DNA of 45,219 bases, taken from positions 1 to 45,219 of IMG/VR virus record IMGVR_UViG_2740892444_000003; one strand, written 5' to 3'. The notes beneath the pieces are model-generated. The model worked only from the letters and a program-made list of their open reading frames with translations. It was not told the DNA's origin and did no database searches. Shown piece by piece: positions 36,877 through 39,603 of this stretch. The position numbers and the translations under genes were made by a program. The stretch's first letter is position 1. The number at the start of each line of letters is the position of its first letter. The stretch comes from a virus (Duplodnaviria; Heunggongvirae; Uroviricota; Caudoviricetes).

Positions 36877-36903
36877 TAGTGCCTCCGTTTATCACACAGA
36901 GCA

Positions 36904-36932
36904 ACTTTACCATTTTGATAAATAAACTGCAA
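36904..36932 (-). promoter_or_regulatory. PR promoter with overlapping operator
   Basis: On the minus strand: TTGCAG, a 17-nt spacer, then TAAAGT. The 17-bp operator TTTATCAAAATGGTAAA (36906-36922) overlaps the spacer and the -10 element. A further operator-like site, TTTATCCATTTGCTAAA, lies at 36955-36971. Confidence 0.5.
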
Positions 36933-36989
36933 TGGAGATTTATCAAAATGCGTATTTATCCATTTGCTAAATAGAGGGAGAATCGTGGG

Positions 36990-37694
36990 ATGGAAAACAA
37001 AGATATTCGCAAATCGAATCTGGCGTTTTTGCTAGATGAGCATAAAAAAATCGCTGGTAACACTAATGCAAGCTTTGCCGATAAGCTTGGAGTTAGCCCT
37101 TCTCAACTCACGCAAGTCTCCGGTGAAAAAAGCACTCGAAACATAGGGGATAAACTAGCAAGAAAATTCGAAGCCGCACTTGGGTTACCTAATGGGTGGC
37201 TTGATTTGGTACATGATGTAACACCAATTGCATCATGCTCAGATTCTTTAACTTTTGTCGGTCAGGTAAGAAAAGGGTTAGTGCGCGTGGTTGGTGAGGC
37301 AATTCTTGGTGTTGATGGTGCCATCGAGATGACCGAAGAGCGCGATGGGTGGCTCAAGATTTATAGCGATGATCCAGATGCCTTTGGTCTTCGTGTGAAA
37401 GGAGACAGCATGTGGCCTAGAATAAAATCAGGAGAATATGTACTCATTGAGCCTAACACCAAAGTATTCCCGGGTGATGAGGTGTTTGTCAGAACCGTTG
37501 AAGGACACAACATGATCAAAGTTCTTGGCTATGACAGAGACGGAGAATACCAGTTTACAAGCATCAACCAGGACCATAGGCCAATAACGTTGCCTTATCA
37601 TCAAGTAGCAAAGGTGGAGTATGTGGCTGGTATTCTGAAGCAATCTCGCCATCTGGATGACATCGAGGCAAGGGAGTGGCTGAAAAGTTCGTGA
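36990..37694 (+). CDS. cI: CI-type repressor with a LexA-like S24 autopeptidase domain
   Basis: It has an N-terminal HTH (FADKLGVSPSQLTQV) and a C-terminal GDSMWPRIKSGEYVLIEP...KVLG motif set. Confidence 0.9.
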   Translation: MENKDIRKSNLAFLLDEHKKIAGNTNASFADKLGVSPSQLTQVSGEKSTRNIGDKLARKFEAALGLPNGWLDLVHDVTPIASCSDSLTFVGQVRKGLVRVVGEAILGVDGAIEMTEERDGWLKIYSDDPDAFGLRVKGDSMWPRIKSGEYVLIEPNTKVFPGDEVFVRTVEGHNMIKVLGYDRDGEYQFTSINQDHRPITLPYHQVAKVEYVAGILKQSRHLDDIEAREWLKSS

Positions 37695-37860
37695 CTTCAT
37701 CGTCACATAGCTGATAGCCAGTGGCCTGAAGAGACGTTTGGGTAATTCCAATTGTTATTTATGAACAGTCAATTCCGCCAGATTGGTGATGATGACAAGC
37801 CGCTATGGCTTAGCTTCAACATGAATACATTCATCGTAACCACAGCAGGGAGTTTAACGA

Positions 37861-38865
37861 ATGAATTCTATTGAAAATCATGATGTTTATGTGTATACAG
37901 GCGATATTCATCGTGATGGTTATCTTGATCTCACCAATGAAATCAAGAAACGTAAGTCACAACATGGATTAAAAGAAAATGTTATCTTCTGTGTTGCTAC
38001 TTATGGCGGTGATCCAAATGCAGGTTATCGTATAGGTAGAGCTCTACAGCACCATTATGAAACGGTAACACTTTTAGTTGTTGGACCATGCAAAAGTGCT
38101 GGTACACTAATAGCTATAGCAGCCAATAAACTTGTTATTGGCGACATGGGGGAGCTTGGACCATTAGATATCCAACTGAAAAAAAACGATGAAATAGGTG
38201 AAATGAGTTCTGGTTTAGCTATCATGACAGCTCTTGATGCTCTAAAGGAACGCTCTATTTCAGCGTTTAACTCACACCTTGTTAAGATAAGGTACGAAAA
38301 TCAGATCAGTACTAAAATGTCTGCTGATATCGCAACCAGACTTACAGAAGCGTTGATAGCACCTATGGCCGCACAGATAGATCCTATAAAGCTTGGTGAA
38401 CATCAGCGCGCAATGAGTATAGCTATCACTTATGGTCAACGATTAGCAGACAAACCAAGCAGCCTAAAAGAAGGGGCGTTAGGCAAACTAATAGCCTCAT
38501 ATCCTTCACATGGATTTGTTATCGACAGAAAAGAAGCCAAGGAACTTTTCAAGTGTGTTGAACATCCTGAAGGCATAACAGAAATACTCTATAATCTTTT
38601 CTGTGACAAAATTCATAGTGGTGAAATTCCAACATTTGGAAAGCCAAGAGTAATGGATTTCACTGTTTCCCAACAAGATAAAGAGGAATACACTAATGCC
38701 GAAGAATCTGCAACCGGAGATGGAAGTTCTCAACAGGATGCTGGAAAGCCAGATCCAGGAAGGTCGCGATCTGGCAAGAAAAGCGGAACAACACCTGAAC
38801 GAGATCAAGAAGGAATTGGAGCCGTATCAATTCAACCACCAGATGAACAGCAACCTAATGCGTGA
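37861..38865 (+). CDS. ClpP/crotonase-fold serine peptidase (SDH / S49-like), in the rex-slot position
   Basis: The segment ...FCVATYGGDPNAGYRIGRAL...LLVVGPCKSAGTLIAIAANKLVIGDMGELGPLD matches a Clp-fold pattern, with the putative nucleophile Ser at codon 38095-38097. The gene is AT-rich and has an AGGGAG RBS. The last ~56 codons look non-coding by codon choice. Confidence 0.65.
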   Translation: MNSIENHDVYVYTGDIHRDGYLDLTNEIKKRKSQHGLKENVIFCVATYGGDPNAGYRIGRALQHHYETVTLLVVGPCKSAGTLIAIAANKLVIGDMGELGPLDIQLKKNDEIGEMSSGLAIMTALDALKERSISAFNSHLVKIRYENQISTKMSADIATRLTEALIAPMAAQIDPIKLGEHQRAMSIAITYGQRLADKPSSLKEGALGKLIASYPSHGFVIDRKEAKELFKCVEHPEGITEILYNLFCDKIHSGEIPTFGKPRVMDFTVSQQDKEEYTNAEESATGDGSSQQDAGKPDPGRSRSGKKSGTTPERDQEGIGAVSIQPPDEQQPNA

Positions 38866-38881
38866 TCTCTTTGCTCTGTAA
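38696..38881 (+). CDS. Hypothetical 61-aa helical protein overlapping the 3' end of the protease ORF in another frame
   Basis: It has a GAGGA RBS and host-typical codons (CTG, CCG, GAA, CAG). It ends 15 nt before the terminator. Confidence 0.5.
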   Translation: MPKNLQPEMEVLNRMLESQIQEGRDLARKAEQHLNEIKKELEPYQFNHQMNSNLMRDLFAL

Positions 38882-38895
38882 TTAATTCCTCACAT

Positions 38896-38920
38896 CCCGG
38901 CCTCAGCGCCGGGTTTTCTT
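38896..38920 (+). terminator. Terminator closing the cI/rex-slot transcription unit
   Basis: CCCGGC-CTCAGC-GCCGGG followed by TTTTCTTT. Confidence 0.7.
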
Positions 38921-39111
38921 TGCCTCACGTTCGCCCCAAAACACATAACCAATTGTATTTATTTGAAAATTAACAGATACAACTCACTAAAACGCGCAAT
39001 TCTGATCCCCCTCAAGTCTCTTTATTCCTTCTGATAAATTCCTGCAATCAAATAAAAAACCATAATAATCAACAGGATATTTGAAAACAAAAACAATTTA
39101 TCATTTTGCTA

Positions 39112-39140
39112 TTGCCATTAATTTATCATTTCGATAAAGT
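39112..39140 (+). promoter_or_regulatory. PL promoter with overlapping operator
   Basis: TTGCCA, a 17-nt spacer, then TAAAGT. The perfect operator TTTATC-ATTTC-GATAAA lies at 39122-39138, and a weaker half-matching site lies at 39097-39113. Confidence 0.55.
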
Positions 39141-39186
39141 TAACTCATCAGCAGGACGCTGGAAGCCAAACGGAACAGACTGGCAG

Positions 39187-39232
39187 GCTCTTTAAACAAC
39201 GTCGAACACTCGACTACGTGGCTGAAAAGCCA
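39187..39232 (+). promoter_or_regulatory. nutL-like site (boxA GCTCTTTAA, boxB TGGC-TGAAAA-GCCA)
   Basis: It lies between PL and N and parallels the nutR candidate. Confidence 0.4.
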
Positions 39233-39330
39233 GATCACCCAACCACATAAGCTGTGGGATGCAATGCCGAAGCAACCGTCTCAGGAGGGGCTTCGAGATT
39301 GCATCGCCAAAGTTTATTCGGGAGGAATCT

Positions 39331-39603
39331 ATGTCCAGAAAAACAGAATTTAAAGGCACCTCAGCTTCTCGCCGTAGAGCTCGTCGCGCAAACCTGCAAA
39401 GTCAGGAGGCGATCAGCTCCGACAAGCTACACAGGCCAACCCCTTCACGAGTGGTCTTGCAATGCAAGCGCAAACCAGCAATGAGAGCAGAAGTGATAAC
39501 TCTGACAACGTTGACCAGAAAATATGAAGGTTCAACTTGTCTTCCGAACGTAGCCATTTACGCGGCAGGCTACAGGAAATCAAAACAACTGACAGCAAGG
39601 TGA
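39331..39603 (+). CDS. N-type antiterminator (P22 gp24-like)
   Basis: It has a GGAGG RBS, an Arg-rich motif SASRRRARRANL, and a C-terminus LPNVAIYAAGYRKSKQLTAR comparable to P22 gp24 LPGVALYAAGHRKSKQITAR (from memory). Confidence 0.75.
   Translation: MSRKTEFKGTSASRRRARRANLQSQEAISSDKLHRPTPSRVVLQCKRKPAMRAEVITLTTLTRKYEGSTCLPNVAIYAAGYRKSKQLTAR

Follow-up and report, generated by a model that had tools for sequence, protein, structure and literature searches.

A probable small gene overlapping the 3' end of a ClpP-fold protease gene in the immunity region of a lambdoid prophage

The small reading frame at the end of the protease gene

The immunity region of a lambdoid prophage lies at 35-40 kb of the 45,219-nucleotide (nt) Caudoviricetes record IMGVR_UViG_2740892444_000003 (hereafter the window, to whose whole length all coordinates refer), and its orientation is reversed relative to the usual lambda map. 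Genes resembling cro, cII and O lie on the minus strand, divergent from the repressor, while the plus strand carries in order a cI-like repressor, a serine protease gene, a small open reading frame (ORF), a terminator and the pL/N region. The small ORF begins inside the protease gene in its +1 frame and extends 16 nt beyond the protease stop codon (Table 1, in which all parts are on the plus strand). The comparisons described below indicate that this ORF is very probably a real gene, and that the repressor is quite probably followed by a same-strand, out-of-frame, two-gene cargo cassette rather than by a lone protease. An initial annotation of the sequence had described the two frames, a GAGGA ribosome-binding site for the second frame and an end just before the terminator, and each of these features is present.

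Fifteen distinct homologous DNAs, with protease cores 68-99% identical to that of the window over residues 1-240, were compared. They comprised three Escherichia coli haplotypes, a Klebsiella phage and sequences from Leclercia, Serratia, Salmonella, Yersinia, Pantoea, Xenorhabdus, Brenneria, Kluyvera, Klebsiella, Edwardsiella and an Aeromonadaceae metagenome-assembled genome (MAG). All 15 contain a +1-frame ORF of 60-61 codons that starts with ATG. In 11 of them GAGGA or AAGGA precedes the ATG by exactly 8 nt, and the other four have GGAG or GAGGA at a different spacing; this arrangement is kept despite a linker around the Shine-Dalgarno sequence that is highly variable across the homologues. 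The ATG, present in 15 of 15, and the Shine-Dalgarno sequence thus give the second gene a translation-initiation signal of its own. The ORF ends 7-40 nt past the protease stop (16 nt in 10 of the 15), and a hairpin with a T-run follows within about 60 nt of the ORF's stop codon in nearly all homologues listed, although it is not obvious in the Klebsiella phage (L090).

Comparative signals well beyond what chance would give come from the pattern of variation along the overlap. Among the 15 homologues, the entropies at the first, second and third positions of the protease codons are 0.41/0.19/1.28 in the core and 0.81/0.69/1.39 in the linker that precedes the overlap. In the tail they become 1.10/0.73/0.59, so that the third position of the protease frame is now the least variable one. 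Read in the small frame, variability across the overlap ranks third position over first over second (third over second, Mann-Whitney p = 1e-6), and a sliding window places the switch of codon periodicity at protease residue ~279, which coincides with the ATG of the small ORF. An OLGenie-style count over seven independent pairs, in which selection on the alternative frame is measured separately, gave a ratio of changes nonsynonymous in both frames to changes synonymous in the small frame alone (dNN/dNS) of 0.26 (binomial p = 6e-20), as expected for purifying selection on the small frame. Together, the flip in periodicity and this ratio argue for selection at the amino acid level in the +1 frame, and they bear out the proposal of the initial annotation that the 61-codon frame, with its conserved ATG and length, is a genuine gene.

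Simpler measures agree. The small protein is more conserved than the tail in amino acid identity in 101 of 105 pairs, and in the six closer pairs with the window that have a measurable synonymous rate (dS), the ratio of nonsynonymous to synonymous rates (dN/dS) is ~0.1-0.2 in the small frame versus ~0.8-3 in the tail frame. The final five residues of the small protein, which are encoded past the protease stop, retain an acidic-then-hydrophobic pattern. E. coli strain 30EVA2 (L107, NZ_CP138419.1, 304-489) has one extra substitution within the overlap; it is silent in the protease (the product is identical to WP_001084325.1) and changes Gln49 to Pro in the conserved FNHQM stretch of the small protein. 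Some annotation pipelines have called the small gene in nine clusters, for example as a Klebsiella 'hypothetical protein'. AlphaFold2 models the small protein as one helix spanning residues 3-60, with a predicted local distance difference test (pLDDT) score of 86, in agreement with the coherent helical protein that had been suggested. It is predicted to be a single long amphipathic alpha-helix, and by eye its hydrophobic residues apparently have the heptad spacing of a coiled coil.

The protease frame is maintained through the same segment in a different way. Given the residues of the small protein, the probability that the protease frame of the window stays open to its observed end is 4e-4 with the codon usage of the gene family and 9e-3 with that of E. 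coli, and it is 0.13 or less in all 15 homologues. Five small-frame codons of the window that end in T before the protease stop are each followed by a codon starting with C, and a sixth, CGT followed by GAT, creates the TGA stop codon of the protease. Stop avoidance thus indicates that the reference frame is maintained across the overlap, whereas constraint on its amino acids is not significant (dNN/dSN, the corresponding ratio for the protease frame, is 0.83 with p = 0.17 over the same seven pairs). The initial annotation had raised the question of tail conservation, and the answer is divided: the presence, length and composition of the tail are conserved in homologues, and its sequence is not significantly so. 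These sequence comparisons indicate that the segment is truly dual-coding, with sequence-level selection acting on the small protein and the tail being selected for openness and hydrophilic composition.

Table 1. Features of the repressor-terminator interval (window coordinates)
Feature	Position	Strand	Basis
cI-like prophage repressor (helix-turn-helix [HTH] and S24 peptidase)	36990..37694	+	Pfam Peptidase_S24, E = 3.8e-16; PGAP name LexA-family or HTH regulator
Probable exchangeable cargo cassette (protease and small ORF)	37747..38882	+	homology break and resumption versus L009
Shine-Dalgarno-like GGGAG, 8 nt ahead of protease ATG	37848..37852	+	direct sequence reading
ClpP-fold/S49-like (SDH-type) serine protease, 334 amino acids (aa), stop TGA 38863-38865	37861..38865	+	ORF list, profiles, PGAP name, PHROG 21683, AlphaFold2
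GAGGA Shine-Dalgarno of small ORF, within protease coding sequence, 8 nt ahead of ATG	38683..38687	+	spacing kept in homologues
Probable unannotated 61-aa gene, +1 frame, stop TAA	38696..38881	+	comparative selection signals, AlphaFold2 helix
Apparent dual-coding segment, 170 nt	38696..38865	+	protease codons 279-334 and stop (frame 0); small-ORF codons 1-57 (frame +1)
Intrinsic terminator (tIMM-like), 15 nt past small-ORF stop	38896..38923	+	pattern scan: six G-C pairs, then TTTTCTTT

The cI-like repressor gene lies upstream in what is presumed to be the lysogenic operon. The terminator hairpin proper occupies 38896-38913 and is followed by the T-run, and the gene for the N antitermination peptide lies at about 39331-39603. 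Just upstream of the N gene and overlapping it, PGAP places a 'frameshifted hypothetical protein' pseudogene at window ~39134-39353 (4435-4654 of L001, a locus that is 100% identical to the window over 37700-39000). E. coli HZDC01 carries a locus with 100% identity to the window over this range. This call recurs in several genomes and may be an annotation artefact over the pL/nutL leader. An ORF of 37-40 codons at 37752-37874 overlaps the start of the protease gene.

The protease, its cassette and distant relatives

The protease is modelled by AlphaFold2 as a folded part, residues ~1-271, followed by a hydrophilic tail, residues 272-334. The pLDDT is about 70-95 up to residue ~270, with 10-residue blocks above 90 roughly at 11-90 and 221-250, and it falls to about 30 in the tail, which we read as disordered. 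Structural comparison of the model revealed a ClpP/crotonase fold, the best matches in the Protein Data Bank (PDB) being SppA (3RST/4KWB), 1510-N and ClpP (probability 1.00, E 2.6e-5 to 1e-3). In profile searches the protein scores below the cut-offs for PF01972 (29.6 bits versus 31.3) and NF047768 (36.7 bits versus 250), and the match to the SDH-type profile is confined to residues 43-109. PGAP names the product 'SDH family Clp fold serine proteinase', precomputed PF01972 hits exist for most homologues, and PHROG 21683, annotated 'unknown function', matches with E = 1.4e-179; weak matches were found to the head-maturation family NF045542 (E = 2e-8), to phrog_1684 and to PF25145 NfeD1b_N. We conclude that the protease represents a divergent subfamily of the SDH-type ClpP-fold serine proteinases (MEROPS clan SK, S49-like). 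Ser79 lies in an invariant C77-K78-S79-x-G81-T82 motif (CKSAGT) at the position matched by the family profile, and the invariant residues K108, H181, H217 and D222 are its candidate catalytic partners. A three-helix insertion is predicted at residues 118-196. More than 1,500 homologues were detected in many phyla, and hydrophilic tails of comparable length are still present in homologues with as little as 42-48% identity (Bartonella, Neisseria, Malonomonas). Such distant tails begin acidic and tend towards a more basic composition further on.

The limits of the cassette are marked by a locus in NZ_CP134370.1 (L009), in which cI and the downstream region are the same as in the window and the cargo is different. 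Homology to the window is restricted to 36900-37746 and 38883-39400, and this break places the exchangeable cassette at 37747-38882, so that it ends at the stop codon of the small ORF and not at that of the protease. The gene that replaces the protease cassette in this locus (1613-1993) encodes a 126-aa hypothetical protein, and the cI product, WP_000428098.1, is the same as in L001. The Klebsiella phage ST13-OXA48phi12.4 (L090) has homology to 37870-38877 in an unrelated context beside an XRE/ImmA pair. Ahead of its protease, and overlapping the protease start by 14 nt, lies an annotated 71-aa gene (2302-2517) that does not occur in the window and may be an extra component of the module in that lineage.

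The two genes also travel together. The 193-nt segment bearing the small ORF was found in 28 of 5,426 complete E. coli genomes, a count equal to that of the full cassette, and no genome among the 5,426 had the segment without the protease. All 28 matches are full-length and unbroken and lie beneath the protease annotation, and both frames are open in each of the four E. coli haplotypes that were translated. The unit of protease and small partner outlined in the initial annotation is thus always intact in these 28 genomes, and interruption of the 61-aa frame, which it had suggested looking for in relatives, was seen neither there nor in the 15 homologues. An overlap of ~170 nt is kept in Klebsiella, Leclercia, Serratia, Salmonella, Yersinia, Pantoea, Brenneria and others, including an Aeromonadaceae MAG. 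No close relative (core more than 90% identical) was found whose protease ends near residue 278 with another gene, or none, downstream.

The slot between the repressor and the terminator corresponds to the position of rexAB in phage lambda. The cassette directly follows a CI-type repressor in prophages of at least six genera (E. coli, Serratia, Yersinia, Brenneria, Kluyvera and Klebsiella); this repressor has an S24 peptidase domain, or in Klebsiella is a CI-like HTH protein. Elsewhere among the homologues the cassette occupies other accessory-gene positions. A pattern scan found no terminator-like site between cI and the protease gene and one right after the small gene. The terminator, annotated 'immunity region | terminator' in many lambdoid and Stx phages, and the segment downstream of it are common to more than 100 lambdoid and Stx phage records; this homology begins at window ~38884-38889, directly past the stop codon of the small ORF. 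By its position the cassette lies in a prophage accessory slot behind cI, and the position likewise suggests expression in lysogens. The sequence comparisons indicate that this slot is an exchange hotspot.

Several other observations concern the slot and its surroundings. Window positions 38884-39000 are 84-93% identical to mEp234, HK106, H-19B, BP-4795 and many Stx1/Stx2 phages, and also to ~900 E. coli genomes; the conserved module boundary of this downstream segment adjoins the cargo slot. Another E. coli prophage (L008, NZ_CM129869.1, 1604-2677) carries in the same slot a distant SDH-type protease of 300 aa, which is 24% identical over a stretch of 70 residues surrounding the active-site serine. 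The stop codon of that protease is directly followed by the start of an annotated 56-aa gene (TAAATG), which makes a second, non-overlapping pair of protease and small gene in the same hotspot. Prophages of Serratia (L093, 1756-1854) and Kluyvera (L103, 1522-1620) have a further gene between repressor and cassette, for a 32-aa YoaK-like membrane peptide (PF28021), and no counterpart of it is present in the window.

The relationship between the two genes was followed further in 80 distant loci spread over many phyla (best tblastn segment 36-58% identical), and the statements on their ORFs cover the loci with readable output. In most of these, an ORF of ~50-70 codons lies where the protease gene ends; it is usually in the +1 frame, and in many cases it has a Shine-Dalgarno-like sequence. 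Where the protease is tail-less, with 34-55 residues past core position 240, an adjacent ORF of ~56-66 codons overlaps it by 0-14 nt (L030, L033, L037, L040 and L089), and distant proteases with long tails overlap the partner ORF by 100-200 nt. The position of the motif QxQMDKAxxFARM varies within a beta-proteobacterial/xanthomonad cluster: L047 encodes it +62..+100 nt beyond the protease stop, L032 across the stop, and L031, L036, L042 and L055 within the tail. A cyanobacterial cluster keeps KELRKxQLxQTxER with an overlap of 71 or about 125 nt. The series supports a conserved two-gene module, in which a partner of ~60 codons would be constant and the protease stop would slide over it to give overlaps from 0 to ~200 nt. 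The most fitting interpretation of the tail is that the protease gained a C-terminal extension, overprinted on the partner gene.

Other explanations of the overlap

The initial annotation placed a mosaic junction at 38696, where the protease frame would read through into a pre-existing small gene. As an explanation of the overlap, a recent junction at ~38696 would have fused the protease to a foreign small gene and left the tail as functionless read-through. A tail that is nearly neutral in sequence and has a very-low-confidence model would fit this explanation, as would the separate small gene that follows a shorter protease in distant lineages and the rise of GC content, which is 0.386 in the protease core and 0.488 in the overlap. 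The shift in base composition that had been described is therefore present, but GC rises in all 15 homologues, which makes the rise intrinsic to the dual-coded segment rather than a scar of recombination or a sign of mosaicism. Moreover, the comparison with L009 puts the recombination boundaries at 37747 and 38882, with none at 38696; the same overlap occurs across the Enterobacterales and in the Aeromonadaceae MAG, and the small ORF is not found apart from the protease in E. coli. The avoidance of stops in the protease frame is improbable by chance, and long tails occur across phyla. We consider a recent junction very unlikely. What stands of the original idea is a protease that reads into a pre-existing gene on a deep timescale, as the separate partners in distant lineages suggest, and not a recent fusion.

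A second explanation is that the 61-codon ORF is no gene and simply arises as a by-product of a hydrophilic, disordered tail. Stops in the +1 frame need a T at the second position of a protease codon, which specifies a hydrophobic residue, and a tail that lacks such codons leaves the +1 frame free of stops and yields a plausible peptide with many K, E, Q, N, L and M residues. An exact synonymous-codon calculation gave a probability of 0.44-1.0 in the 15 homologues (0.56-0.72 in the window) that the +1 frame is open given the tail residues, and openness by itself is therefore uninformative. Almost all distant homologues have an open +1 frame over the tail, while their +2 frame is not open there; the openness was dropped as evidence because this calculation leads one to expect it from a hydrophilic tail.

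Codon usage is open to the same objection. The contrast reported in the initial annotation in favour of the 61-aa frame is real: a codon adaptation index (CAI)-like measure reaches 0.66 in the small frame, against 0.52 in the tail frame and 0.545 in the protease core, and GC content at third positions (GC3) of the small frame is 0.66. Of the codon counts it gave, CTG does occur five times in the small frame, while GGA occurs seven rather than six times in the tail frame. The contrast is confounded, however, because the third position of the small frame is the first position of the protease frame, which is G-rich (GGN, GAN, GCN), and codons such as CTG, CCG, CAG and GAG arise automatically in the small frame. 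The two frames constrain each other, and codon usage was set aside as deciding evidence.

Several findings speak against a by-product. The codon periodicity flips at the ATG and changes to the small protein are strongly disfavoured, as the dNN/dNS of 0.26 attests, and the ATG, the Shine-Dalgarno spacing and the length of 60-61 codons are kept while the linker and the tail diverge. Furthermore, the ORF continues past the protease stop, where its C-terminal pattern is conserved, its stop codon marks the cassette boundary, and partner genes in other lineages barely overlap the protease. We give the by-product explanation even less credence than a recent junction.

Programmed frameshifting or transcriptional slippage, which would give the protease two alternative C-termini (as in dnaX or the phage tail chaperone G/GT) and no separate small protein, is just as hard to credit. 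In the window, the +1 frame has no stop in the 14 codons ahead of the ATG, and some relatives have a longer open stretch there. An A7 run (GGCAAAAAAAGCGG) lies inside the overlap of a 96%-identity E. coli haplotype (L003 ~2575-2590), and the metagenomic protein P0009 (55 aa) begins in the small frame and moves to the protease frame at this run; slippage there is conceivable, but a homopolymer sequencing error is the simplest reading. Against frameshifting, no conserved slippery site was found and the sequence just before the ATG is the least conserved part of the gene, the predicted RNA fold near the small-ORF start is unremarkable (z = -0.31), the Shine-Dalgarno sequence and ATG are kept at a fixed spacing of 8 nt, and lineages with short overlaps have a separate partner gene with its own Shine-Dalgarno sequence.

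Some observations do weigh against a real small gene and an ancient two-gene module. PGAP never calls the small gene, which would also suit a by-product, and a hidden Markov model (HMM) search of 1.8 billion representative proteins returned only four called homologues, all from one narrow clade. Outside the Enterobacterales, selection only trends in the same direction (dNN/dNS 0.4-0.6, p = 0.05-0.10, in the cyanobacterial and Cellvibrio-type clusters, where the comparison is underpowered). When a profile of the 15 enterobacterial small proteins was run against open stretches of at least 35 codons in 98 loci (L010 up), it recovered only the enterobacterial and Aeromonad set. The case for a single ancient partner gene is based on position, size and per-lineage motifs, since sequence homology between clades is undetectable. 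Neither the small protein nor ten candidate partners of other lineages had a meaningful match in Pfam, NCBIfam, PADLOC or PHROGs.

Possible function and comparison with known systems

Our best reading of the protease and its small helical protein is that of an accessory module expressed in lysogens, in which the helix would regulate or target the protease. The cassette would be co-transcribed with the cI-like repressor, as rexAB is in lambda lysogens, and translation of the small gene would start at its own Shine-Dalgarno sequence and ATG inside the protease tail, in the +1 frame. The helix may bind the protease and serve as an inhibitor, an adaptor or a trigger, and the overlap may couple the synthesis of the two products.

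Among the roles that such a module may have, phage exclusion or abortive infection is the most plausible, although we think it on the unlikely side. More speculative still, and in our view rather improbable, is that the pair represents an undescribed and widespread two-component conflict module (abortive infection or exclusion) in which the helix holds the protease inactive or acts as a sensor, and in which the tail serves as an SppA-type pseudo-substrate or plug. In such a conflict module, translation through the start site of the partner would set the ratio of protease to partner, and the sliding stop across phyla would reflect repeated overprinting of the tail on the partner gene. These functional proposals have to contend with several negative results. 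PADLOC-DB v2.0 contained no match to either protein at E <= 1, which leaves both outside its defence families, Pfam gave nothing for the small proteins, and we found no relevant paper on SDH-, SppA- or ClpP-like proteases in phage defence or in prophage immunity regions.

Whatever the function, the overlap bears on how such loci are read and handled. Few long overlaps that are same-strand and out-of-frame have both frames well supported in bacteria, and such cases are disputed; the comparative statistics are strong here. The lineage series, with the partner separate, partly overlapped or mostly overlapped, would be a clean case of a tail overprinted on a neighbouring gene. Standard annotation appears to have missed a conserved partner beside a large protease family, and cloning of the annotated 'SDH family' protease alone would unknowingly include, truncate or mutate that partner. 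A cassette that sits in the rexAB slot and has no match to a known defence family is a candidate for a new module expressed in lysogens.

Several known systems share features with the cassette. The best structural match to the protease core is SppA of Bacillus subtilis (MEROPS S49; 3RST/4KWB, Foldseek E = 2.6e-5). In the 4KWB structure SppA has its own C-termini in the active sites, where they are self-processed, which is a precedent for a tail that acts as a built-in substrate, inhibitor or plug. The two proteins differ in that identity is 12-16% and TM-scores are 0.34-0.55, and the prophage protease has no apparent membrane anchor and carries the insertion at residues 118-196; a small overlapping partner gene is not known for SppA. 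In the NfeD/1510-N (STOPP)-stomatin operon, a ClpP-fold Ser-Lys protease (3BPP, 3VIV, 6M4B) is likewise encoded beside a partner, and 1510-N binds and cleaves its partner stomatin. That partner, unlike the small protein, is a membrane stomatin of ~250 aa, and the operon has no out-of-frame overlap and is cellular rather than prophage-borne. Lambda C/Nu3 (S49.003) provides a phage-encoded example of an S49-family protease gene that also specifies, in its 3' part, a smaller second protein. However, Nu3 is nested in the same frame, and C/Nu3 belongs to the head-gene cluster and to capsid maturation, whereas the cassette is in the immunity region, away from the structural genes.

In genomic position the closest parallel is lambda cI-rexA-rexB. 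Both sets of genes fill the slot after the repressor and before a tIMM-type terminator and pL/N, and both comprise two genes that are presumably expressed in lysogens. Other cargo found after cI includes stk of 933W and bstA of BTP1, and like lambda rexAB and such cargo, the cassette appears to be exchangeable between prophages of different immunities. RexAB is an exclusion system based on a membrane channel. The cassette has no sequence or family relation to it and instead encodes a soluble-looking ClpP-fold protease and a helix, for which exclusion is at most a suggested role.

In gene architecture the closest parallel is the Rz/Rz1 pair of lambdoid phages. Rz and Rz1 share a strand, and the second gene is read in the +1 frame of the first; depending on the lineage the second gene is embedded in the first, overlaps it or is separated from it; the two products act together. 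They are the spanins, lysis proteins made late in infection, and Rz1 is fully embedded in lambda. Lambda Rz/Rz1 and its equivalents were reportedly treated by Summer et al. in J Mol Biol in 2007. The genes described here resemble that pair in their common strand, in the +1 frame of the second gene and in an architecture that varies, here from no overlap to ~200 nt, and their products may likewise act jointly. They differ from it in that the second gene overlaps the 3' end of the first and passes its stop codon, in their location in the immunity region and in their unrelated sequence, and also in that one of the overlapping products is a tail that is modelled as disordered and is almost unconstrained in sequence. 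By analogy, the protease and its small partner would be comparable to the gene pairs of the Rz/Rz1 style, which are embedded, overlapped or separated.

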